Positions 1 through 13,110 of a stretch of 13,664 bases of DNA are shown piece after piece. The translations under genes were made by a program, and so were the position numbers. The stretch's first letter is position 1. The number at the start of each line of letters is the position of its first letter. The DNA comes from a virus, in UHGV virus genome UHGV-0143428. One strand, given 5' to 3'. Under the pieces are notes generated by a model. It saw nothing but the letters and a program-made list of their open reading frames with translations, had not been told where the DNA came from and did not search any database.

Positions 1-48
1 CGAGATAGGCTCCGGTCTCGTGGGCTCGGAGATGTGTATAAGAGACAG
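1..48. other. Illumina Nextera P7-side adapter (non-biological contig-end contamination)
   Basis: Bases 1-6 CGAGAT (end of P7), 7-14 AGGCTCCG (8-nt i7 index position; as recalled the reverse complement of Nextera index N720 CGGAGCCT), 15-29 GTCTCGTGGGCTCGG, 30-48 AGATGTGTATAAGAGACAG (Tn5 mosaic end). Genomic sequence begins at base 49. Confidence 0.9.
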
Positions 49-50
49 GG

Positions 51-80
51 CTAGGGAAGGCTAACCTTCCCTAGTTTTTT
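51..80. terminator. Perfect 10-bp inverted repeat (CTAGGGAAGG-ctaa-CCTTCCCTAG) plus T6, immediately downstream of the 355-aa gene stop; terminator-like hairpin
   Basis: Stem 51-60 / 65-74, loop 61-64, T-run 75-80 on the + strand. On the minus strand the U-run side would lie in the adapter-truncated region, so its function for the minus-strand operon cannot be confirmed. Confidence 0.4.
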
Positions 81-81
81 A

Positions 82-1149
82 TTAGATAAGATCTTCCTCA
101 TCATGATCAAAGCCATACTGTAGAGCTTCAGATAGCTCAATTTGCTTATTTAAGTGTAGATTCACTCGAACAGCAATCCATTTAGCTGGACTTCCCATAC
201 CTGCTATATCCCCTATAGCAGCATTTCTTATCATTGCAGCTCCCCAAGAGTCCTCCCTTTGATAATGTGGATACTCTGCCAAAATTGATTTCGCAGCTTC
301 AATGAACCCTTCTTTATTCATCCCAGGGCGGCGCTCGAAATACCATGAATCATTTAACGCTATATCAATTCTAGGAACATATCGCCCAATTATGTTGTCA
401 TACACTACTGAATGAATTGAACCATGATCGCCATAAATAGCGACATCACTTCCACCAATATTTTGATGCAATTCTCTCTCAATAACATCAATATATCCGG
501 ACTGTCCATTTTCACGGCAAAAATTTGTAACTGAACTAGGGAAGCTTGTTGCTAGCACACTAATTATGGCTTCAGGAATCTCAGTTCTAATCTGATTAAT
601 CGAATTTATTGCTGCAGCTGTTATAGCAGATACATTCCCTCTAATGTAGCCCAAATCTATGAAAACTATGGCATTTTCTGGAGAGTTCATCGATACTAGT
701 GACGTCAGGGTTTTATTAATGTCTGTATTTAGATTTCTAATTCTAAATGCAATTGAACCTTTAAGTTCCTCTAAAACCCTGGCTTGGATAGATATATCTC
801 TAAGTTTTGCTGAATCCGGCATCTGGACTACTGGAATAATATTATCATTTCTGGAACAAAACTCTATCCAGTTTTTAAAACCATTCTCAGGAGAGAGTAG
901 TTCGAAGCTTGACGCGCAATGATGAGAATTATCCTTTGTGACATCCAAAATAAATGGGAGATTACTCATCACTTCTAAACTTTTATCTAACGATACCTGT
1001 ATTTCTTCCGAGCGAGGCCATTTCCCCAAAGAAATTAAAGGTAATATTTTTTTCTTATTCTCATATGATAAATTATTCAGTCCGGTCATTTCTGCTGATC
1101 GTGTTCTTAGGGCTGGATAGTATGAGTAATTTTCAAAATATACTTTCAT
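82..1149 (-). CDS. Hypothetical 355-aa soluble protein, distal gene of the hotspot cassette; candidate P4 beta-type protein (unverified)
   Basis: Uninterrupted 355-codon ORF with a GGAGG RBS about 11 nt upstream of the ATG. The start lies 2 nt after the stop of the upstream 133-aa gene (TAA-AT-ATG), indicating translational coupling. About 37% GC versus about 55-60% in psu/alpha. No Walker A or other motif I can recognise by eye. It sits where P4 carries gop-beta-cII, between cos and int. Confidence 0.7.
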   Translation of the reverse strand: MKVYFENYSYYPALRTRSAEMTGLNNLSYENKKKILPLISLGKWPRSEEIQVSLDKSLEVMSNLPFILDVTKDNSHHCASSFELLSPENGFKNWIEFCSRNDNIIPVVQMPDSAKLRDISIQARVLEELKGSIAFRIRNLNTDINKTLTSLVSMNSPENAIVFIDLGYIRGNVSAITAAAINSINQIRTEIPEAIISVLATSFPSSVTNFCRENGQSGYIDVIERELHQNIGGSDVAIYGDHGSIHSVVYDNIIGRYVPRIDIALNDSWYFERRPGMNKEGFIEAAKSILAEYPHYQREDSWGAAMIRNAAIGDIAGMGSPAKWIAVRVNLHLNKQIELSEALQYGFDHDEEDLI

Positions 1150-1151
1150 AT

Positions 1152-1553
1152 TTAATTAGCCTCCGAATCGATATTTTCTGGTCGGCTTGCTGTTCTTGGC
1201 ATAGCGTTAATTTGGGGGTTCTGAGTAGCAAGATAAGCAGCTATACTTTCCATCTTCTCTTTCTGTTCTGAAGTTCTTGCAAGTTCTTTAATCAATTCTT
1301 TGTTTTCAGCCATCAAGTTTTGATTGGATTCATTATGACTCTTGATTACCTCCATATTACTTTTTATAACATTCGTGTGGTTGTTGCTAATTGCTTTAAT
1401 CGTTCTGTGTGTAAACCATCCAATAAGTAAAGCAGCTAACCATCCAGAACAAACGAGCAACCATTGTGAAATATCTTGGTTGCGGATGAAGCTAGTAGCA
1501 ATAGTGATTATGGTCCCAACAACGCCAATTAATCCATATACATGATTCAGCAT
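1152..1553 (-). CDS. 133-aa small membrane protein (two N-terminal TM helices plus charged coiled-coil tail); candidate toxin/effector of the hotspot cassette, possibly gop-type (unverified)
   Basis: Hydrophobic segments at about residues 6-23 (YGLIGVVGTIITIATSFI) and 31-47 (WLLVCSGWLAALLIGWF), followed by a K/E/N-rich helical tail. It is the first gene after cos, transcribed away from cos, and is AT-rich like its partner. Confidence 0.6.
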   Translation of the reverse strand: MLNHVYGLIGVVGTIITIATSFIRNQDISQWLLVCSGWLAALLIGWFTHRTIKAISNNHTNVIKSNMEVIKSHNESNQNLMAENKELIKELARTSEQKEKMESIAAYLATQNPQINAMPRTASRPENIDSEAN

Positions 1554-1780
1554 CCTTTAACTCTCTCATGCCACGAATTCTTAAGGATCTTGCGACACTG
1601 ACAAGAACCACCTTACATCAATCTATTTTTTGCATATTTTTCAGGATAGTGCCATCAAAAAAGACAGTTTTGGACCATAGGCCATAGATTTTCTTCATTA
1701 TGCTCCAATGTATTAACGAGGTATGTACTGAAGGCACTTTGACTACACAAATAATTAACTAACTTGTCGGTTTGCGCGCG

Positions 1781-1799
1781 GTGCTTTCCCCGCCTCGCC
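1781..1799. other. cos site: P2/P4-type 19-nt cohesive end sequence
   Basis: GTGCTTTCCCCGCCTCGCC at 1781-1799 is the reverse complement of GGCGAGGCGGGGAAAGCAC, the cohesive end of P2/186/P4 as I recall it. It is located just beyond the psu stop, as in P4. Confidence 0.8.
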
Positions 1800-1900
1800 C
1801 GCCCGCTTTGCGGGGCGGTTTTAATGCAGTTGCACTGACACGCTCAGACCGCGCCGGGAATGGCGCGGTTTGCAGAAAATGAGGCAGGAAAACGCATGCA

Positions 1901-1934
1901 AAGCCATGCACCTTATCGATGCATGGCTTTTTTC
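1901..1934. terminator. Intrinsic-terminator-like hairpin between psu stop and cos
   Basis: AAGCCATGCA (1901-1910), 9-nt loop, TGCATGGCTT (1920-1929), then a T-run on the + strand. It lies about 30 bp downstream of the psu stop codon (1965) on the opposite strand, so it is possibly bidirectional. Confidence 0.45.
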
Positions 1935-1964
1935 AGTAAAAACAGGCGGATTTTTCGGGGAGTT

Positions 1965-2537
1965 TTACACAGACTGACGTGATGCCAGTTCTGCACTTTT
2001 ACGCGAAAAAATCATGTTCTGCGCAGGGGTGAATTTTTCACGGCTGTCATCCACCGAAGCCGCGTCAGGCCTGAATCCGATGGTCGTTAAAATGTCGCTA
2101 TCCTGTGCGGAATAATTAATTTTTTCCCCCTTCGCAAGCCAGGACAGAAGGGCTTCACGCAGGGCATCTGTGGCACGCTGTATGGCACAGTTTCGGGCAA
2201 TGGCCGTCAGCTCACTGTAGCCCATCAGCTCCGGTGCCAGTGCGGCCGCCAGTGCTGTGCCGTGCTGCTGCATAAAATCATTCAGCCGCTCGCGGATGCT
2301 GATGTGCTGAACGGCTTCATGCGAACGAATATAACGACCGGCGGCCTGATTCACCTGCCATTTTCTGACTTCGATAATATTGCGTAATTCGTCCAGGCGA
2401 CTGACGTTTCTGCCTTCTCCTGACAGAAGCCGCAGATATTCCTGTTCGGCCGCTGCCAGCTCATTTTTGCGTTGCAGCCATGCTGCTTTGTTATTCTGAC
2501 AGGTGTCAAAGGCCTGCTGTAAGGCTGTGCTTTCCAT
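1965..2537 (-). CDS. psu: Psu, polarity suppression / capsid decoration protein (P4-type)
   Basis: 190-aa ORF starting MESTALQQAFDTCQNNK. Length and N-terminus match my recollection of P4 Psu. It is the last gene of the sid-delta-psu operon, adjacent to cos. Confidence 0.85.
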   Translation of the reverse strand: MESTALQQAFDTCQNNKAAWLQRKNELAAAEQEYLRLLSGEGRNVSRLDELRNIIEVRKWQVNQAAGRYIRSHEAVQHISIRERLNDFMQQHGTALAAALAPELMGYSELTAIARNCAIQRATDALREALLSWLAKGEKINYSAQDSDILTTIGFRPDAASVDDSREKFTPAQNMIFSRKSAELASRQSV

Positions 2538-2610
2538 CGTTATCTCTTTCTCATCATGCTGAAGAATAAAAATACGGTGTGCGGCGACGGCCGGTGTTAA
2601 CCGGCAGCCC

Positions 2611-3111
2611 TCATTCCAGACGCAGCGAATATGATTGTGTTTTTAACCGTACTGGCGGCAGTTCCTGTTTTTCATGCAGGCGTTCTGCCAGTTCGTCCGG
2701 CGTGACCGGGCGGACAATGAAGCGGTTGATGGTCTGAAGCGTTTTAAACACCAGACCACAGCCCGGATCCGTGCACACATAAAAACGCTCGGTGACTTCC
2801 TGAGACAGACGCCGCGATGTTCTTGACAGTGCAAGGCCTTTACATCTCCGACAACAATATCCGGTAACAAGCATTCTTTTCGGGCGTTTCATACCGCAGG
2901 AGGCTGACGTCAGTGAATCGCGGTATCTCTGTTTGCCTGAAATGTATTCCATTCCTGAATCTTTACTGTCAGAGAAAAAGCTTTCACTCGCTTCAAATGT
3001 CGCAGAGCAATAAATATTCCGGCACTGTGCAATCATTATCTTGGTGCCATCGTCCATGAAATGTGCGCGACGGGTGTGAGCAACATGTCCACACGACGGA
3101 CAGTAAATCAT
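2611..3111 (-). CDS. delta: Delta, late-gene transcriptional activator (tandem Ogr-type zinc-finger protein)
   Basis: 166 aa. Two Ogr-like Cys4 units (CPSCGH...CRNIYC near the N-terminus, and CCRRCKG...CTDPGC in the second half). Its start overlaps the sid stop (ATGA). Length matches P4 Delta as recalled. Confidence 0.85.
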   Translation of the reverse strand: MIYCPSCGHVAHTRRAHFMDDGTKIMIAQCRNIYCSATFEASESFFSDSKDSGMEYISGKQRYRDSLTSASCGMKRPKRMLVTGYCCRRCKGLALSRTSRRLSQEVTERFYVCTDPGCGLVFKTLQTINRFIVRPVTPDELAERLHEKQELPPVRLKTQSYSLRLE

Positions 3112-3842
3112 GACAGCAGCCCTCTGGCCTTAAGCTCTGCTCCCTGCTGGTCTATTTTGTCCTGCCACACCTTGCGCTGTGCCGGTGTGCCTGCCACCTC
3201 ATAATCCATGTGCGGGAGTGTTGCCGCTGACAGTCCGGTCAGCCGGAGAACCGGCTCGCCGGTGAGGCTGATTTGCATCTGTTTAATTTTCTGTTCCAGC
3301 GATGATTTCACCTGCTGCATGACAGCCTTTTCCGGTGCGACGTAGCCCTGATGGCCGGTGGTGTTGGCGAGCGGATTTTCCTGTACCAGAATGCTCAGAT
3401 GCATTGCCCGGACAAGCGCCTCACAGGTTTCATTCAGGGCGTGTTCCAGCTCATGCTCTGCATACAGACTCAGAAGGTGATGATGTGCCTTCCGGTAGGC
3501 GGTGGCCGTGCTGTCACACGCCCCTTTCAGGCGTTCACGTTCGAAATTCAGCACCACGGCCAGATTGTCATATTCCTGTACCAGCTCCCGGCGTGCCACG
3601 CGCTCAATGTGGCGCTGTTTCAGCTCGTCGCTCAGGACACCACCGGCTGCACGAAAGGCCGTGCGCCAGTCGTCAGCGTCGTTTCCGTCGGCCTGCGCCA
3701 GCGCATTTTTTTCCTGCTCTGCCCGTTCAATGGCCGTGACGGTCTCATCCATCAGGCGGGCGTTCTCAAGATGGGCGGCTCTGGCCTTTTCCAGTTGTGC
3801 CAGTGCGGGTTGCAGATATTCAGGGATAGTGTGGTCAGACAT
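3108..3842 (-). CDS. sid: Sid, capsid size-determination (external scaffold) protein
   Basis: The ORF is open from 3860, but the GAGGAG RBS sits 8 nt upstream of the internal ATG at 3842 (MSDHTIPEYL...), giving 244 aa, the P4 Sid length as recalled. It is a helical, Q/E/A-rich protein and the first gene of the late operon. Confidence 0.85.
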   Translation of the reverse strand: MSDHTIPEYLQPALAQLEKARAAHLENARLMDETVTAIERAEQEKNALAQADGNDADDWRTAFRAAGGVLSDELKQRHIERVARRELVQEYDNLAVVLNFERERLKGACDSTATAYRKAHHHLLSLYAEHELEHALNETCEALVRAMHLSILVQENPLANTTGHQGYVAPEKAVMQQVKSSLEQKIKQMQISLTGEPVLRLTGLSAATLPHMDYEVAGTPAQRKVWQDKIDQQGAELKARGLLS

Positions 3843-3914
3843 TTTCCGGCTCCTCGTCACTTCAGGTTAAGAAAATTGTGACGTACACCGGACAACAACA
3901 CGACGCATTGCAGA

Positions 3915-3932
3915 TGTGCCAGCCCTGACACA
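3915..3932 (-). promoter_or_regulatory. Candidate Delta/Ogr binding dyad (TGT-N12-ACA) of the sid late promoter
   Basis: TGTGCCAGCCCTGACACA. Its centre is about 80 bp upstream of the sid ATG, which would place a transcription start about 25 nt upstream of the ATG if the dyad is centred at -55, as in P2/P4 late promoters. The motif is short and could occur by chance. Confidence 0.3.
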
Positions 3933-4011
3933 GGAGACTCATCCTCAGACCGGCAAGCCAGGAAAAGGTCGCAGGAAAAACCGGCTTACTGTTTGTTTTT
4001 TTATATTTTAC

Positions 4012-4116
4012 TGTTCACCTCTGTTCACCTTAATAAAAAAGATAAGTAATACAGTAAGTTAAAGGGTGAACAATCGCAGTAATGACTGTTCACCGTCTGT
4101 TCACCACTGTTCACCC
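4012..4116. repeat. Iteron cluster (TGTTCACC octamers), ori-like alpha-protein binding region
   Basis: Direct copies of TGTTCACC at 4012, 4022, 4087, 4098 and 4109, and one inverted copy (GGTGAACA) at 4065. Flanked by AT-rich tracts. P4 alpha binds iterons of this type in ori and crr (recalled). Confidence 0.75.
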
Positions 4117-4219
4117 GTTGATGGGCTTTTTGTGCTGTTTACTACTGTTTGTTTTTATTAATTCGCCGGGAATGAATAAGAAGAAACGATTTGTATTTCA
4201 CTATAAAAATTACAAATTG

Positions 4220-4249
4220 CTTTAAGTGGCTTTAAATGACTTTAAGTGG
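4220..4249 (+). promoter_or_regulatory. Helically phased triple CTTTAA repeat / duplicated TTTAAGTGG upstream of vis (candidate operator/promoter element)
   Basis: CTTTAA at 4220, 4230 and 4240 (exact 10-bp phasing). TTTAAGTGG at 4221-4229 and 4241-4249. It is located about 150 bp upstream of the vis start in an AT-rich region. Confidence 0.35.
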
Positions 4250-4394
4250 AGATGAACAAAAAACACACAGCCATTGTAAGGCAGCCTGAACAAATCCCCC
4301 CTGTTGCGTCTGCTGAAAATATTCACAAAATAAAGCGCTACCCGAAGCCGGACGGACTTATCCGGTGCTGTATGGACATTAACGAGGTAGCCCG

Positions 4395-4661
4395 ATGCAA
4401 GCTGTTTTTTCTTCCCCGTCTCCCGCCCCAGTGACGCCACTGATGCCGCTGCCGGACATCACGCAGGAGCGTTTTTTACGTCTGCCGGAAGTGATGCACC
4501 TGTGCGGCCTGTCACGCTCGACCATCTACGAACTCATCCGTAAGGGGGAATTTCCGCCGCAGGTGAGTCTTGGCGGTAAAAATGTGGCCTGGCTGCACTC
4601 TGAAGTCACCGCATGGATGGCCGGGCGCATTGCCGGACGCAAACGGGGGTACGACGCATGA
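4395..4661 (+). CDS. vis: Vis/AlpA-family excisionase-type transcriptional regulator
   Basis: 88-aa ORF with the AlpA-family signature ([32 protein letters not shown]). GAGGT RBS 8 nt upstream of the ATG at 4395. An internal start at MPLPD cannot be excluded. Confidence 0.75.
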
Positions 4662-5059
4662 TGATGCCCGCTCTGCAAAAACTCCCTTTTTCTGGCTTGC
4701 CTTTTTCCGGCATTTGCGGATATAGTTTTTCCGCTGCCGCAAAATCGGCAGCCGGGCGTGAGAACCCGAGCAATTCACAGGCGACATATGACGCGCCACG
4801 CGTCTTTTTTTGTGTCGCAATCAATGCCACAGAGCGCCAGATTATGGTGTGGTGTGTGGTCAGTCGTGCAGATGGCATTCCGTGCATCCTGCCCGCGTCC
4901 GCTCATTATGCCGCAGAGTCAATGGTAGCTCAGGCGGGGCAGCCTCCGGGCTGGCCGGTATCCGTTAGAGCCGGTATTCTCACCCCCGTCTGGGCTATCG
5001 CCATCGAGCGTGAGAACTCCGGCGATAGCGTTATTTGCTATTCACAGGAGGCTGCCATC

Positions 5060-5257
5060 ATGGCTACAACCCTTACCCCCTCACACCCTGAATTTGTCTT
5101 TGTGTTTGCGGCTGTCCGTCGCGCAGACCGTCATCCCCGTATCTGTATGCTTCGCACCGTCGCCGGTGATGAACGCAGTGCCCGCCGTTCCCTTGTCCGT
5201 GACTATGTGCTCTCCCTTGCTGCCCGTCTGCCGGTGGTGGAGGTGTCCCGTGCGTAA
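5060..5257 (+). CDS. Small hypothetical protein (65 aa) of the leftward operon, translationally coupled to the epsilon-like gene
   Basis: An internal ATG at 5060 within the long 4613-5257 reading frame is preceded by AGGAGG 7 nt upstream. The stop overlaps the GTG start of the next gene. The upstream part of the long ORF is more likely RNA/leader. Confidence 0.4.
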
Positions 5258-5537
5258 TAAAAAAGCCCCTCAGACCGTCTCAGCGCGTCATGACGCCCGT
5301 GAACACCTCAGCATTGAGGCTTACCATAAGCTCAACCGCGCCAGCGCCGTATCCCGGTTTGTTGGGGGTGATTTGATTCACCGTGAACTCTCCGGCCTGC
5401 ATCAGCTCTACATTCCGCATATTTTCAGCTACCTGAATGAAGATATTGATTTTGTGCTGAATGAGCTGAAAGCCAAAGGCCTGTGCCGCGATTTTCTCGC
5501 CCAGCAGAAAGACCGGGGAGACAGGACGCATGTTTGA
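5250..5537 (+). CDS. Epsilon-like protein (P2-derepression factor position), about 95 aa, GTG start
   Basis: GTG at 5250 preceded by GGAGGTG 5-6 nt upstream, in frame through the stop at 5535-5537, which overlaps the ATG of the orf151-like gene. Size and position relative to orf151/alpha match P4 epsilon as recalled; the sequence identity is not verified. Confidence 0.5.
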
Positions 5538-5985
5538 TTTTCCCCAGCCCGGTGAGATTTACCGTTCTGCCGGTTTTCCCGATGTGGCCGTGGTCGGCAT
5601 TCTGGAAGACGGTATTCCGTGGGAAATGCCGTACCGCTGCCCGGACATTGTCTGGAACCCGTACCGCCGTAAATTCAGTATCCTTGTGCGTATCCTCGCT
5701 GACGGACGCACCACAGACATCCCGCTGGGGCGTTTTCTGCGGGAATTTACCTGTGACCGTCCTGACCTGTTTAAACGCAGCCCCGTAAACCGGCATTCGG
5801 TACTGAAAGAAATGGCCGGAGACCCGGAATTACAGAAATGGCGGGAAAAATATCTGGATATTTACCCGCAGGACACTGTTCCGGTCAGCCGGGCAGCACC
5901 GGTGGCGCGGGAATGGCGGGAAATTCCCCGCACGGAGCCTGACCCGGAAACCACCCCGGATAACAGTTACCGCAATTATCTGTAA
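5530..5985 (+). CDS. orf151-like protein (151 aa) of the alpha operon
   Basis: Exactly 151 codons. Its ATG overlaps the upstream gene's stop. It lies upstream of alpha, as does P4 orf151. Confidence 0.65.
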   Translation: MFDFPQPGEIYRSAGFPDVAVVGILEDGIPWEMPYRCPDIVWNPYRRKFSILVRILADGRTTDIPLGRFLREFTCDRPDLFKRSPVNRHSVLKEMAGDPELQKWREKYLDIYPQDTVPVSRAAPVAREWREIPRTEPDPETTPDNSYRNYL

Positions 5986-6120
5986 TTAAAAAACGACCCC
6001 CGAAAAATTAAATGTGCGTATTCGCGCAGGGATACGCACGTCTTCAGGAGACGCAGATATGCCTTATCAGTTAATGCAACCGGCACGGAATGCAGTCATC
6101 TGTCACAGGGAGAAAAGCAA

Positions 6121-6441
6121 ATGAAAACACCCTTACCGCCCGTCTTACGCGCTGCCCTTTACCGTCGCGCTGTCGCCTGTGCCTGGCTGACCGTGTGCGA
6201 ACGTCAGCACCGCTACCCGCATCTCACCCTTGAATCACTGGAGGCGGCCATCGCCGCTGAGCTGGAAGGCTTTTATCTGCGCCAGCACGGTGAGGAAAAA
6301 GGGCGCCAGATAGCCTGTGCCCTGCTGGAAGATTTAATGGAATCCGGCCCCCTGAAGGCCGCGCCGTCGCTGTCCTTTCTCGGGCTGGTTGTGATGGATG
6401 AACTCTGTGCCCGTCACATAAAAGCGCCGGTACTGCACTGA
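6121..6441 (+). CDS. Hypothetical 106-aa protein immediately upstream of alpha
   Basis: ORF with a GGGAGA RBS, ending 14 bp before the alpha start. Preceded by a 21-codon upstream ORF whose TGA overlaps its ATG. Confidence 0.55.
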
Positions 6442-6455
6442 AGGAGAACAACACC

Positions 6456-8789
6456 ATGAAAATGAACGTAACCGCCACCGTCAGCCATGCGCTCGGCCAC
6501 TGGCCGCGTATTCTCCCGGCGCTGGGGATTCAGGTGCTGAAGAACCGTCATCAGCCCTGTCCGGTCTGTGGCGGGAGTGACCGTTTCCGTTTTGATGACA
6601 GGGAGGGGCGCGGCACCTGGTACTGCAATCAGTGTGGTGCCGGTGACGGCCTGAAACTGGTTGAAAAGGTGTTTGGTGTTTCCCCGTCCGACGCGGCCGC
6701 AAAGGTGGCTGCCGTGACCGGCAGCCTGCCACCGGCTGACCCGGCAGTGACGACCGCCGCCGGTGCTGAAACAGACGCTGCCCGGAAGAACGCCGCCGCA
6801 CTGGCACAAACCCTGATGGCGAAAACCCGTCCCGGAACCGGTAACGCCTACCTGACCCGCAAGGGCTTTCCCGGCCGGGAATGCCGGATGCTGACCGGCA
6901 CACACAGAGCCGGTGGCGTGAGCTGGCGCGCCGGTGACCTTGTGGTGCCACTGTATGACGACAGCGGCGAACTGGTTAACCTTCAGTTAATCAGTGCTGA
7001 CGGCCGTAAGCGCACCCTGAAAGGCGGGCAGGTCAGGGGCACCTGTCACATCCTTGAAGGACAGAATCAGGCCGGAAAACGTCTGTGGATAGCGGAGGGA
7101 TACGCGACCGCACTTACCGTGCATCACCTGACCGGTGAAACGGTGATGGTGGCGCTTTCTTCCGTGAACCTCCTTTCTCTGGCCAGCCTTGCCCGGCAGA
7201 AGCATCCGGCCTGTCAGATTGTCCTTGCCGCAGACCGTGACCTCAGCGGTGACGGCCAGAAAAAAGCCGCCGCAGCCGCAGATGCGTGTGAGGGCGTTGT
7301 TGCCCTGCCGCCGGTCTTCGGTGACTGGAATGATGCCTTCACGCAGTACGGCAGGGAGGCCACCCGTAAGGCCATTTATGATGCCATCCGGCCACCGGCT
7401 GAAAGCCCGTTCGACACCATGAGCGAAGCGGAGTTTTCCGCCATGAGTACCAGCGAAAAGGCCATGCGTATCTATGAGCATTACGGCGAGGCGCTCGCGG
7501 TCGATGCCAACGGCCAGCTTCTGTCCCGCTATGAAAATGGTGTCTGGAAGGTGCTGCCACCACAGGACTTTGCCCGGGATGTGGCCGGGCTGTTTCAGCG
7601 TCTGCGCGCGCCGTTCTCCTCCGGGAAGGTGGCCTCCGTGGTGGACACCCTGAAGCTGATTATTCCGCAGCAGGAAGCCCCCTCCCGCCGCCTGATTGGC
7701 TTTCGTAACGGCGTGCTCGACACGCAGAACGGCACGTTCCACCCGCACAGTCCGTCACACTGGATGCGCACCCTGTGCGATGTGGATTTCACCCCGCCGG
7801 TGGACGGTGAAACGCTGGAGACCCACGCCCCCGCGTTCTGGCGCTGGCTTGACCGTGCCGCCGGTGGCCGTGCGGAAAAACGCGACGTGATTCTGGCCGC
7901 ACTGTTTATGGTGCTGGCAAACCGCTACGACTGGCAGCTCTTTCTGGAGGTGACCGGTCCCGGCGGCAGCGGCAAAAGTATCATGGCCGAAATAGCCACC
8001 CTGCTGGCCGGGGAGGATAACGCCACGTCGGCCACCATTGAGACGCTGGAATCCCCGCGTGAACGTGCCGCGTTAACTGGCTTCTCACTGATACGCCTGC
8101 CGGACCAGGAAAAATGGAGCGGCGACGGTGCCGGACTCAAGGCCATCACCGGCGGCGATGCGGTGTCCGTTGACCCGAAATACCGGGATGCGTACTCCAC
8201 GCATATCCCGGCGGTGATTCTGGCCGTGAACAATAACCCGATGCGCTTCACCGACCGCAGCGGCGGCGTGTCACGCCGGCGGGTGATTATTCACTTCCCG
8301 GAACAGATAGCCCCGCAGGAGCGCGACCCGCAGCTTAAGGACAAAATCACCCGCGAGCTGGCGGTCATCGTGCGTCACCTGATGCAGAAGTTCAGCGACC
8401 CGATGCTCGCCCGGTCACTGCTTCAGTCCCAGCAGAACTCAGACGAGGCGCTGAACATCAAACGGGATGCCGACCCGACGTTTGATTTTATCGGCTATCT
8501 GGAAACCCTGCCGCAGACCAGCGGCATGTATATGGGGAACGCCAGTATCATCCCGCGCAATTACCGTAAATACCTCTATCACGCCTATCTGGCCTACATG
8601 GAGGCAAACGGCTACCGGAATGTACTCAGTCTGAAAATGTTCGGGCTGGGGCTGCCGGTGATGCTGAAGGAATACGGACTGAATTACGAGAAGCGCCATA
8701 CCAAACAGGGGATACAGACCAACCTGACGCTGAAAGAGGAAAGCTACGGCGACTGGCTGCCAAAATGTGACGACCCTACAACAGCCTGA
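6456..8789 (+). CDS. alpha: Alpha protein: bifunctional primase-helicase with C-terminal origin-binding domain
   Basis: 777 aa, the P4 alpha length as recalled. N-terminal zinc motif CPVCGG...YCNQCG, TOPRIM-like EGYATALTV and LAADRD, Walker A GPGGSGKS at 7951-7974, and Walker-B-like acidic residues. AAGGAG RBS 8 nt upstream of the ATG. Confidence 0.9.
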   Translation: MKMNVTATVSHALGHWPRILPALGIQVLKNRHQPCPVCGGSDRFRFDDREGRGTWYCNQCGAGDGLKLVEKVFGVSPSDAAAKVAAVTGSLPPADPAVTTAAGAETDAARKNAAALAQTLMAKTRPGTGNAYLTRKGFPGRECRMLTGTHRAGGVSWRAGDLVVPLYDDSGELVNLQLISADGRKRTLKGGQVRGTCHILEGQNQAGKRLWIAEGYATALTVHHLTGETVMVALSSVNLLSLASLARQKHPACQIVLAADRDLSGDGQKKAAAAADACEGVVALPPVFGDWNDAFTQYGREATRKAIYDAIRPPAESPFDTMSEAEFSAMSTSEKAMRIYEHYGEALAVDANGQLLSRYENGVWKVLPPQDFARDVAGLFQRLRAPFSSGKVASVVDTLKLIIPQQEAPSRRLIGFRNGVLDTQNGTFHPHSPSHWMRTLCDVDFTPPVDGETLETHAPAFWRWLDRAAGGRAEKRDVILAALFMVLANRYDWQLFLEVTGPGGSGKSIMAEIATLLAGEDNATSATIETLESPRERAALTGFSLIRLPDQEKWSGDGAGLKAITGGDAVSVDPKYRDAYSTHIPAVILAVNNNPMRFTDRSGGVSRRRVIIHFPEQIAPQERDPQLKDKITRELAVIVRHLMQKFSDPMLARSLLQSQQNSDEALNIKRDADPTFDFIGYLETLPQTSGMYMGNASIIPRNYRKYLYHAYLAYMEANGYRNVLSLKMFGLGLPVMLKEYGLNYEKRHTKQGIQTNLTLKEESYGDWLPKCDDPTTA

Positions 8790-8837
8790 CCCACCTGACC
8801 GGCATCTGCCGGTCTTTTTTTATCCCGACATCCCCCG

Positions 8838-9115
8838 AAGGTGAACAATCCACTGTTCACCCTTCACCGTATATTCACCCGTTATCACACTGAAATTAAA
8901 AGAGAAAAACGAAAGGTGAACAGTGTGAACAATCAAATCAAAAAAAACTTTTTTCTTCCTGAGTGATTTCAGTGCGGAGGATTAATCACCGGTATGAGTC
9001 ACACCGGCAGAATGCCGGAGGTGAAGAATCGAATGTTCACCCTTCACCCATTATTCACCACCTATCACTCTGAAATAAAAGGAGAAAACAGAAAGGTGAA
9101 CAGTGTGAACAGTTC
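8838..9115. repeat. crr-like cis replication region: two ~97-bp direct repeats (about 85% identical, period 180 bp) each carrying several iterons and followed by an A-run/T-run block
   Basis: Repeat A at 8838-8934 and repeat B at 9018-9114. Each contains GGTGAACA, TGTTCACC, CTTCACC, ATTCACC and the terminal GAAAGGTGAACAGTGTGAACA. A7/T6 tracts follow at 8938-8954 and 9120-9136. Confidence 0.75.
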
Positions 9116-9326
9116 TTTCGAAAAAAAATTTTTTATGTGGATAAAAGATGCACTGGTTTGGATCCGAGCTACGGATCCAAACTTACTGATTAAAAATGAT
9201 TTAACTTTCCGATTTATTGATGGGCTGAAAATAGATTGGTCAGAAAAACAGTGGGGGCACAAAAGGGGGCATATTTCATTGTTGTGTTTTATTATTTGTT
9301 TTTTATCATTAACTTATTTTGATGTT

Positions 9327-9346
9327 TGAGTCCGGCCTTCGCACCA
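9327..9346 (+). other. att core: 20-bp copy of a tRNA 3' end (T-arm/acceptor/CCA), tRNA-Leu (leuX)-like
   Basis: TGAGTCCGGCCTTCGCACCA matches, with one missing G, the 3' end of E. coli tRNA-Leu(CAA) as I recall it (..TTCGAGTCCGGCCTTCGGCACCA). Upstream sequence is AT-rich and not tRNA-like, so this is a core repeat (attR-type) rather than a full tRNA gene. Confidence 0.6.
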
Positions 9347-9531: not shown

Positions 9532-10797
9532 ATGGCATTAACAGATATCAAAGTCAGAGCAGCCAAGCCAACGGATAAGCAATATTAGCTGACTGATGGT
9601 GGCGGTATGCATCTGCTTGTCCATCCAAATGGTTCTAAGTACTGGCGTTTGCAGTACCGTTATGAGGGAAAGCAAAAAATGCTGGCACTTGGGGTTTATC
9701 CTGAAATCACACTAGCGGATGCCAGAGTACGTCGTGACGAGACGCGTAAGCTGCTTGCGAATGGCGTCGATCCGGGAGACAAAAAGAAAAATGATAAGGT
9801 TGAACAGAGTAAAGCACGAACCTTTAAAGAAGTCGCGATTGAGTGGCATGGCACCAATAAAAAGTGGTCTGAAGATCACGCCCATCGTGTGCTAAAAAGT
9901 CTTGAAGATAATCTTTTTGCAGCGCTTGGTGAACGTAATATCGCTGAGTTAAAAACTCGAGATTTATTAGCACCTATTAAGGCCGTAGAAATGTCTGGAC
10001 GTCTTGAAGTGGCCGCTCGTCTTCAGCAGCGCACTACAGCCATCATGCGCTATGCAGTGCAAAGTGGGTTAATTGATTATAACCCGGCACAAGAGATGGC
10101 TGGGGCGGTTGCTTCCTGTAATCGACAACATCGTCCCGCGCTTGAATTAAAGCGCATCCCTGAGTTGCTTACAAAAATAGATAGCTATACTGGTAGGCCG
10201 CTAACCCGATGGGCGATAGAACTCACTTTGCTGATCTTTATTCGGTCCAGTGAGCTGCGTTTTGCTCGTTGGTCAGAGATCGATTTCGAAGCGTCTATAT
10301 GGACTATCCCACCGGAGCGGGAGCCTATTCCTGGAGTGAAACATTCCCATAGAGGCTCAAAAATGCGTACAACGCATCTAGTGCCTCTTTCAACGCAAGC
10401 TCTTGCAATTTTAAAGCAGATAAAACAGTTTTATGGGGCCCATGACTTGATATTTATTGGTGATCACGATTCGCACAAACCCATGAGTGAGAATACGGTA
10501 AATAGTGCGTTACGGGTCATGGGGTATGATACAAAAGTAGAGGTTTGTGGTCATGGCTTTCGAACAATGGCCTGTAGTTCATTGGTCGAATCAGGTCTGT
10601 GGTCTCGTGATGCTGTTGAACGTCAGATGAGCCACATGGCGCGAAATTCAGTGAGGGCCGCGTATATCCATAAAGCAGAGCATCTGGAAGAACGGCGATT
10701 GATGCTACAGTGGTGGGCCGATTTTCTGGATGTAAACAGAGAAAGGTTTATCAGTCCATTTGAATATGCAAAGATTAATAATCCATTAAAACAGTAA
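9532..10797 (+). pseudogene. int: P4-family tyrosine integrase with an in-frame amber codon at codon 19 (N-terminally disrupted; 396-aa ORF remains from an internal Met)
   Basis: ATG at 9532 with RBS encodes MALTDIKVRAAKPTDKQY, then TAG at 9586-9588, then in the same frame LTDGGGMHLLVHPNGSKYW... This is the conserved P4-type integrase N-terminus interrupted by a stop. The downstream ORF 9607-10797 carries the integrase catalytic region (R..H..R..Y type C-terminus). Confidence 0.8.
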
Positions 10798-12420: not shown

Positions 12421-12780
12421 GAGGGGGCCTTCGCTCCTCTGACATTACTCAGTATTTTCACTACTACACCCCATCTGCCATCCATAACAACCGATTCACC
12501 CCCTCGCGAGGCGTTGTTGCCCGTCACCCGGACAGACACCGTTATGGACTTCTCTTGTTGCACGATCGATCAATTGTTATGCATGCTGACACCACAACCC
12601 CGGTGGGTATGACCGATGCCTTTCTCACTCTCTTCCCGGTCATCGTCGGCCTTCCCCGTTATTGTGGCGTGTCAGCACCCTCGACGGCATTTCGATGGCT
12701 GCTCAGTGTTCACTCACGTTACGGCCCGCATAACCCGTTGACTTCCTGAAGAAGTCGTTTCAGGGAGAGATTCAGCCCTT

Positions 12781-13110
12781 TTGTTACCTCCTGGACCGCT
12801 TCTTGTCCTTCCAGTCGGAGCGAGAGTTAGCCGGGGCGGACTTTCACCGACGGAAAGATCGTGCATTTCAAGGCACACACAACAATATCTGCGAGCGTGC
12901 TATCCGTCCGGTCGTTATGGGACGAAAGGCCTGGTTGTTCGCTGGTTCACTGGTGGCCGGGAACCGCGCGGCACAGATAATGAGCCTTCTGGGAACCGCA
13001 GTCTGGAGCCACATGCTTGGCTGACGGACGTCCTGACGCGTCTGCCGGAGTGGCCGGAGGAGAGGTTGGCTGAGTTACTGCCTCTTGAGGGCTTTACCTT
13101 CTTCGGGTAA
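12781..13110 (+). mobile_element. IS66-family transposase 3' remnant (C-terminal about 100 codons, frameshifted, lacking the DDE domain)
   Basis: Frame 1 (12803-13024) reads NNICERAIRPVVMGRKAWLFAGSLVAGNRAAQIMSLLGTA; frame 2 (to 13110) reads PHAWLTDVLTRLPEWPEERLAELLPLEGF. Together these are the conserved IS66 TnpC C-terminal block, split by a frameshift near 12990-13020. No upstream catalytic region is present. Confidence 0.6.

Follow-up and report, generated by a model that had tools for sequence, protein, structure and literature searches.

Immunity region of a P4 prophage in virus genome UHGV-0143428 and a mismatch between its CI RNA loop and target boxes

Results and discussion

Gene content and identity of the locus

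The DNA analysed is a stretch of 13,664 nucleotides (13.7 kb) of the virus genome UHGV-0143428, the whole of which is called the window below. It represents a P4 prophage, extending from beta/gop through alpha up to the attachment core. Downstream of the attachment core, a second integrase gene was found, followed by other chromosomal material. The region under study contained the following protein-coding genes.

4395-4661, plus strand: vis/orf88, an AlpA-family excisionase/regulator (Pfam Phage_AlpA, E 7.3e-21; ORF88 in the P4 annotation)
4658-5257, plus strand: eta, 199 codons (199-aa CDS of PGAP; Pfam Phage_ASH, E 1.8e-24, on residues 22-146)
5060-5257, plus strand: kil, 65 codons, an Icd-like cell-division inhibitor (63-65 aa in all 21 loci compared; named 'Icd-like' by PGAP)
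5250-5537, plus strand: epsilon, a helper derepression protein and the next gene of the controlled left operon (Pfam Derepression, E 9.2e-51; P4 annotation)

Positions 4380-5540 of the window were 99.2% identical to satellite phage P4 (X02534, X51522, and NC_001609) over 1161 nt, which bears out the RNA-based immunity leader of the P4 kind that the preliminary description of this DNA had proposed. Nine differences from the P4 reference were found over these 1161 nt, four of them being clustered in the loop of hairpin 2 of the CI RNA. The P4 backbone as a whole was present too (window 48-9346, 99.4% identical to the P4 genome). The same region was retrieved from 1057 of 5426 complete Escherichia coli genomes, which contain as many as three to four such elements each, co-resident copies being common. 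The immunity region of the window shares with that of P4 the gene order (sid-delta-psu to one side, vis-eta/kil-epsilon-orf151-cnr-alpha to the other), identical seqA, seqB, and seqC sequences, and the positions of the promoter -10 sequence and the terminator. It differs from it in the hairpin-2 loop, which reads CCTGTGAA in P4 and CCGTTAGA in the window, whereby the complementarity of this loop to both TTCACAGG boxes is broken. The same loop changes turn ..VSCEAG.. of the P4 Eta protein into ..VSVRAG.. in the window.

RNA genes, target sites, and regulatory signals

Within and around the eta frame, the following RNA elements and signals were located.

4697-4726, plus strand: PLE-like constitutive promoter inside eta, sigma-70-like, with -35 TTGCCT (4697-4702), an 18-nt spacer, and -10 TATAGT (4721-4726) (promoter scan)
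4733-4810, plus strand: seqA RNA, an IsrK homologue (Rfam isrK, 69.7 bits, gathering score 50; predicted fold)
4753-4768, plus strand: seqA hairpin, a 4-bp GC stem (4753-4756/4765-4768) with CGUGAGAA in the loop; stem invariant and 100% paired, loop covarying with seqB
4774-4781, plus strand: box 1 (TTCACAGG), complementary to the CI hairpin-2 loop in relatives and canonical P4, but not in the window
4790-4811, plus strand: intrinsic terminator, a 6-bp GC-rich stem and a U run (terminator scan); stem conserved, with one compensatory pair
4918-5005, plus strand: cI gene, encoding the CI RNA (C4 antisense RNA family; Rfam C4, 74.5 bits, gathering score 45)
4962-4969, plus strand: hairpin-2 loop of the CI RNA, differing from that of P4 at 4964, 4965, 4967, and 4968
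4977-4983, plus strand: seqB core TTCTCAC, within the unpaired segment that joins hairpin 2 of the CI RNA to its stalk, pairing with seqA and seqC
4994-5029, plus strand: seqC hairpin, a 9-bp stem with seqC (5008-5017; core GTGAGAA, 5010-5016) in the loop; three compensatory pairs, 98.4% paired, z-score -2.72
5041-5051, plus strand: box 2 (TTCACAGG, 5041-5048) and the overlapping Shine-Dalgarno sequence of kil, AGGAGG (5046-5051)

The predicted -10 sequence of the promoter coincided with the feature labelled 'consensus -10 sequence' in X02534. Downstream of it, the seqA RNA consisted, in this order, of a hairpin (4733-4752), the seqA hairpin, box 1, and the terminator at 4790-4811. This terminator, which ends the seqA RNA, is probably the published t1 of Briani et al. 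(2000), a study cited in PMC4825925. The two 5' hairpins and the intrinsic terminator fitted the model of the IsrK family (RF01394), their helices being 98-100% paired, and a c4-a1b1 target motif was found at 4720-4772 with a score of 49.5 bits, above the Rfam gathering score. IsrK has been equated with the seqA RNA, and the C4 RNA with the CI RNA, of the P4 literature (PMC3632133).

A covariance-model search for the P4 CI RNA, suggested as a check in the preliminary description, returned the C4 family at the position of the cI gene. The predicted fold of this RNA is that of a stalk (4923-4939/4984-5000) carrying two hairpins (hairpin 1, 4940-4953; hairpin 2, 4954-4975), with a free energy of -48.1 kcal/mol and a z-score of -4.76, and 99.8% of its cells were paired across 21 sequences. 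The 3' arm of the stalk doubles as the 5' arm of the seqC hairpin. No clean seqB had been recognised before, but the seqB core complements GTGAGAA exactly in both target copies and lies within the very stretch noted earlier as partly complementary (GGTATTCTCAC), the real position of which is 4973-4983 instead of 4971-4981, i.e., two bases rightward. With each target, seqB forms seven contiguous pairs, and the match with seqA extends to 14 out of 16 positions. Similarly, a repeat finder reported 88% complementarity between 4749-4764 and 4977-4992 and 73% between 4963-4988 and 5005-5030. The predicted core duplexes amounted to -14.5 kcal/mol for seqB with seqA and -9.2 kcal/mol for seqB with seqC. 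According to the literature, the CI RNA is processed from an untranslated primary transcript and pairs with seqA and seqC, which leads to premature termination of transcription (PMC4825925); it is listed among the substrates of RNase P (PMC5499578).

The 10-bp direct repeat that had drawn attention to this region, GCGTGAGAAC, was confirmed at 4756-4765 and 5008-5017 and had no further occurrence on either strand of the window; its two copies are seqA and seqC. Also as described before, the second copy lies in the 18-nt loop of a 9-bp hairpin, the arms of which, GCTATCGCC (4994-5002) and GGCGATAGC (5021-5029), are 100% complementary. The first copy likewise occupies a hairpin loop (stem 4753-4756/4765-4768), a feature absent from the preliminary description, and seqA and seqC are hence both presented in hairpin loops. 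The repeat extends to 22 nt with 77% identity (4753-4774 and 5005-5026). Taken alone, the 10-mer repeat is not significant; when the 645 nt were shuffled 2000 times, some exact 10-mer repeat turned up in 371 cases, and two or more matches with up to one mismatch were found in 31 of 200 shuffles of the window. It stands above chance because it is conserved in 20 related loci and takes part there in a three-way covariation.

Covariation of two RNA contacts among divergent relatives

A protein-guided scan with one genome per species yielded 22 loci with 49-96% Eta identity, originating from Klebsiella, Kluyvera, Pantoea, Erwinia, Mixta, Atlantibacter, and other genera. The isrK and C4 elements were present in the same order in all 20 relatives scanned for them. 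In the alignment of these 20 relatives, seqA, seqB, and seqC changed in concert through four specificity types.

Target (seqA and seqC) GAGAA, seqB TTCTC
Target (seqA and seqC) GGAAA, seqB TTTCC
Target (seqA and seqC) AGGAA, seqB TTCCT
Target (seqA and seqC) TTTGCAG, seqB CTGCAAA

A second contact accompanied that of seqB. In every relative, the hairpin-2 loop of the CI RNA was complementary to an 8-nt box located 5-6 nt past seqA (window 4774-4781), and the same loop was complementary to a second copy of this box just upstream of kil (window 5041-5048), where it overlaps the AGGAGG ribosome-binding site. Changes on both sides were found at six of the eight loop-box pairs, and the match was kept by 20 out of 20 relatives, canonical P4, and 11 IMG/VR contigs. 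When both contacts were considered together, 94.3% of the cells of seqA:seqB plus box 1:loop were paired, with 11 pairs changed on both sides (none of 500 shuffles as high; 40-52% paired in slid-partner controls on the seqA side). For seqB:seqC plus loop:box 2, this was 87.5%, again with 11 pairs changed on both sides and none of 500 shuffles as high. Covariation was also seen in the seqC hairpin and in the helices of the seqA RNA. This comparative evidence indicates that P4-like elements use two covarying contacts, through seqB and through the hairpin-2 loop, with several specificity types that are interchangeable.

The eta frame and the nested kil gene

The frame at 4613-5257, from which the preliminary description departed, was indeed open over 214 aa. 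It was also GC-rich as claimed, be it moderately (58.4% versus 50.4% for the window), but it could not be called of low complexity, as its amino-acid entropy of 4.0 bits equals that of the neighbouring genes. The start of eta is the ATG at 4658 and not position 4613; it overlaps the TGA stop codon of vis/alpA (4659-4661) in a GCATGA context. From there, the eta frame spans the PLE promoter, seqA, the CI RNA, and seqC, and it ends with kil, which is the real gene that had been suspected in the last 65 codons (5060-5257) behind an AGGAGG site. The suggestion that the long frame probably does not encode one protein was thus right as to the substitution pattern, which is protein-like in the kil part only, but not as to the reading frame itself: a full-length Eta has been published, and the kil frame was free of stop codons from the eta ATG to kil in 20 of 21 loci, versus 78 and 115 stops in the other two frames. 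Differences in spacer length were multiples of three among the 20 intact loci. The broken frame, in locus L020, lacks one T in the U run of the terminator. An apparently broken eta in strain LC-1302-2020, annotated by PGAP as a 'partial ash' CDS plus kil, was considered and rejected, the frame being intact in that strain.

Divergence at the first, second, and third codon positions of kil was 0.234, 0.186, and 0.432, respectively, which is a coding pattern. Upstream of kil, it was flat, both in the spacer (0.24, 0.27, and 0.245) and in the C4 part (0.164, 0.157, and 0.177), and codon-position divergence across the Phage_ASH domain did not display protein-level purifying selection. Flat divergence combined with an open frame implies that the frame is kept translatable while the amino-acid sequence is apparently free, which suggests, as far as sequence comparison goes, selection for translatability rather than for amino-acid sequence upstream of kil. 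As a polypeptide, Eta may be without function. This would fit a role of translation, or ribosome transit, itself as the regulator. The summary of Forti et al. (1999) given in PMC10111431 places PLE inside eta and describes Kil as a truncated form that is translated on read-through. According to the same source, only the upstream late promoter gives translation of full-length Eta, a translation that is coupled to the alpA homologue and prevents termination (PMC10111431). The overlap of the eta ATG with the vis stop codon, the open frame, and the spacer lengths reported above are in agreement with this account.

The Phage_ASH match (residues 22-146, nt 4721-5095) falls on the RNA elements, and its conservation may be due to these; the lack of amino-acid constraint suggests that what the 'Ash' family of Pfam reflects is for the most part RNA genes. 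This bears on the alternative that a conventional repressor protein is encoded here and that the repeats are operator-like DNA sites. The labels in the databases speak for such a protein, since the 137-aa CDS of the old 'cI/ash' annotation is still named 'transcriptional repressor' in NC_001609 and 'put. ash gene' in X02534, and so does the Pfam match of Eta. This alternative is nevertheless highly improbable, given the strong RNA family matches and RNA-type covariation, the lack of a codon-position signature in the seqA, cI, and spacer parts, and a Phage_ASH match that overlies RNA elements and may reflect RNA conservation rather than a protein fold. Moreover, the immunity factor has been reported to be an RNA (PMC4825925, PMC3632133, and PMC10111431), a repressor protein being genetically refuted according to the literature cited.

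Proposed mechanism of immunity and related systems

The sequence identity to P4, the matches to RNA families with their predicted folds, the covariation of seqA, seqB, and seqC, the second covarying contact, and the conserved open frame together identify positions 4395-5537 of the window as the immunity region of a P4 prophage, expected to work as published for P4 (probability about 95%). Nothing in the sequence is at odds with the P4 mechanism. The locus is hence already known: it is the well-studied P4 immunity switch, a textbook case of transcription termination controlled by an antisense RNA, with a minor and possibly artefactual variant in this copy, and finding the switch again adds nothing new.

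On this basis, the following course of events would apply, the roles of RNA processing, termination, Eta, and Kil being those inferred from the literature. The constitutive PLE promoter (-10 at 4721-4726), located inside eta, would transcribe an untranslated leader, carrying successively seqA in a hairpin loop, the intrinsic terminator (4790-4811), cI (4918-5005), another hairpin loop with seqC, and the kil ribosome-binding site. This leader would be processed into a stable, cloverleaf-shaped CI RNA of approximately 80 nt, as the literature describes. On nascent PLE transcripts, its single-stranded seqB (UUCUCAC, 4977-4983) would pair with seqA as well as seqC, upon which transcription would stop ahead of kil, epsilon, and the alpha primase gene, resulting, again following the literature, in a quiescent prophage. 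On PLE transcripts, kil would be the first cistron to be translated. Transcripts from the upstream late promoter would be translated through the whole region as Eta, and ribosome transit would make them insensitive to immunity. The exact CI ends and the details of t4 and timm are assumed here from secondary summaries, and processing by RNase P and PNPase and CI-dependent termination at t1, t4, and timm are likewise taken from the literature; in the sequence itself, the one termination signal seen was the intrinsic terminator-like site at 4790-4811.

The RNA module is homologous to that of the immI region (c4, icd, and ant) of phages P1 and P7, as both belong to one RNA family, with the Rfam C4 and a1b1 target motifs in one clan; the operon is different. 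In P1 and P7, c4 is reportedly processed from the leader of the operon that it controls and is said to pair at two sites with duplicated targets that flank the RNA gene, the downstream target reportedly abutting the ribosome-binding site of a small Icd-like ORF (Citron & Schuster 1990, cited in PMC2864571; Biere et al. 1992). P4-like elements share this two-site design, the loop-box contact being the second site. In contrast, the P1/P7 operon consists of icd and ant (antirepressor), whereas the Icd-like kil gene is followed here by epsilon, orf151, cnr, and the alpha primase gene. Other differences are the emphasis of the P4 literature on transcription termination at several sites and the mismatch of the second site in the window. 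The c4 and c4-a1b1 motifs are both listed by Weinberg (2010), in the main text of which pairing details are not given.

Likewise, positions 4733-4810 relate the locus, through the isrK match of 69.7 bits, to IsrK and anrP of the Salmonella prophage Gifsy-1. The P4 seqA RNA has been described as a structural homologue of IsrK, and a CI-like RNA, STnc1160, lies downstream (PMC4825925). The systems differ in that IsrK targets its own long isoform in trans, allowing translation of orf45 and anrP, the latter coding for an anti-terminator inhibitor. The P4 seqA RNA is not known to have such a role.

The second contact in the window and the origin of its mismatch

In the window, the second contact was not found intact, three of the eight loop-box pairs being broken at both boxes. 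In the alignment, the unpaired cells of the loop-box helix belonged only to the window. P4 and an E. coli prophage both carry the loop CCTGTGAA, which matches TTCACAGG perfectly. The possibility that canonical P4 itself lacks the loop-box contact was rejected, as base-by-base comparison found P4 perfectly matched and only the window mismatched. Predicted energies of the loop-box duplexes dropped from -11.8/-14.5 kcal/mol to -3.3/-4.9 kcal/mol in the window. Such site-wise duplex energies were used for the loop-box and seqB contacts; upon cofolding of the whole CI RNA with its targets, the stable CI stalk dominates, and a ddG of -4 to -6 kcal/mol was obtained for both alleles. The second contact is thus predicted to be lost in this copy, and the immunity of this element may be weaker or altered.

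The loop/box mismatch is the only feature of this locus that is not already in databases. The four loop positions are the only differences from strain E308 over 748 nt. The window loop CCGTTAGA is the exact loop of another natural P4 type ('type 2'), represented by five IMG/VR contigs, the boxes of which are TCTAACGG. A census was made of E. coli records with approximately 99% identity or more over the 148 nt that span the loop and the downstream box, in the 5426 complete genomes.

Matched P4 type: 202 records
Matched type 2: 99 records
Hybrid of the window: 0 records
Reciprocal hybrid: 0 records

The hybrid of the window was absent from IMG/VR and from JGI metagenome contigs as well, and the reciprocal hybrid was absent from IMG/VR.

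A first explanation, for which the odds are nearly even, is a real natural recombinant, in which a short-patch exchange put the cI gene of a type-2 element into a P4-type element. The exchanged tract would comprise at least 4964-4968 and at most 4826-5031, as the flanking polymorphisms (4775-4779, 4799, 4825, and 5032-5046) are all of the P4 type. The prophage would then repress itself through seqB only, with a leaky or shifted immunity; its own CI RNA would fully match type-2 satellites, and its own targets would fully match the CI RNA of P4-type elements. Besides the identity of its loop to that of type 2, the occurrence of up to three to four such elements per E. coli genome is in favour of this origin, and so is the closest whole-window relative, which carries another immunity cassette (AGGAA/TTCAAGG, with a spacer that is 45 nt shorter) in a 98.7%-identical backbone, indicating that the immunity module is exchanged in nature. 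The absence of both hybrids from the collections mentioned above, against 202 P4-type and 99 type-2 records in complete E. coli genomes, argues against it and would mean that hybrids, if they arise, do not persist; furthermore, the functional effect is a prediction from duplex energies only.

A more far-reaching reading is rather doubtful. In it, the prophage is a genuine natural hybrid, with the CI RNA of one P4 immunity type and the seqA-side and kil-side boxes of another, and the loop-box contact, which was strictly matched in all other elements examined, would be a second determinant of immunity specificity. The element would then be a natural 'mismatched' satellite with self-repression that is leaky or cross-immunity that is asymmetric, being fully repressed in trans by the CI RNA of P4-type elements and fully repressing type-2 satellites. 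A real mismatch would offer a ready-made natural test of the role of the second contact.

A second explanation, to be taken seriously at somewhat less than even odds, is that of an artefact, namely a chimeric short-read consensus of co-resident P4-type and type-2 prophages, in which the assembler changed from one copy to the other between clusters of variants, or another sequence error, the true element then being an ordinary one of the P4 type or of type 2. Co-residence is common, as stated above, and of more than 300 elements with a close match, no other carries the hybrid. Also, the three clusters of variants are 139 and 64 identical bases apart, which is enough for independent branch choices in de Bruijn graph assembly. 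This explanation has to be weighed against the coherence of the window, which is otherwise of the P4 type over 748 nt, with no other switch.

CI RNA, target boxes and kil translation region

Four clustered substitutions (4964-4968) convert the hairpin-2 loop of the CI RNA, a C4-family antisense RNA, of the window into one that belongs to a different natural P4 immunity type, although both target boxes, the 8-nt segments after seqA (4774-4781) and before kil (5041-5048), are still of the P4 type. No second example of this loop/box hybrid was found in the sequences searched, namely E. coli complete genomes, IMG/VR and JGI metagenomes; over the loop and the downstream box, the E. coli complete genomes contained no hybrids versus 301 matched records. 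Further, CI hairpin 1 (GGCAGCCTCC; 4938-4947) is perfectly complementary over 10 nt to the kil ribosome-binding region (GGAGGCTGCC; 5047-5056), and this pairing is present as a long-range helix in the predicted minimum-energy fold of the whole leader. Judged by eye, the complementarity is kept with one wobble pair in the Enterobacteriaceae relatives and is not conserved in the Pantoea group.

The closest whole-window relative is E. coli LC-1302-2020 (L038; 98.7%), in which 4609-5163 corresponds to window 4658-5257. Its immunity cassette differs from that of the window (seqA/C targets, GCGTAGGAAC; seqB, the CI RNA segment pairing with both, TTCCTAC; boxes, TTCAAGG), and its spacer is 45 nt shorter.

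Eta frame and Ash protein family

The part of the eta frame upstream of kil (4658-5059), the latter being nested at its end, is a conserved open frame, yet it lacks an excess at the third codon position. A match to Pfam PF10554 ('Ash protein family'; nt 4721-5095) coincides with the isrK and C4 RNA genes, and this family may therefore largely reflect RNA conservation. The frame is broken in one of the 21 loci, that of Apirhabdus apintestini (L020), the terminator U-run of which (~1500-1507) is one T short, so that the upstream part of eta is out of frame; this loss may be genuine or may have arisen in the assembly. In L038, the intact eta frame is split by the PGAP annotation into a 'partial ash' pseudogene and a 65-aa Icd-like gene.

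Positions 4732-4733 read CG in the window, as in an E. coli prophage, and GC in the P4 reference. The difference is located exactly at the predicted transcript start of PLE, the promoter inside eta; the GC of the P4 entry is possibly an old sequencing transposition.

Features elsewhere in the window

8994-9329, + strand: 111-aa ORF between alpha and the attachment site; hypothetical in related prophages (PGAP)
9607-10797, + strand: second tyrosine integrase, 396 aa; Arm-DNA-bind_3, Phage_int_M and Phage_integrase domains
12714-12853, - strand: group II intron domains D1-D4; Rfam, 69.1 bits versus a gathering score of 49

The 111-aa ORF was without any Pfam match. The second integrase lies just past the P4 attachment core, P4 homology stopping at ~9346, which points to a tandem arrangement of islands at one tRNA site. 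The group II intron match is not part of the P4 prophage; in related genomes, transposase and phosphoethanolamine-transferase pseudogenes are annotated in this region.
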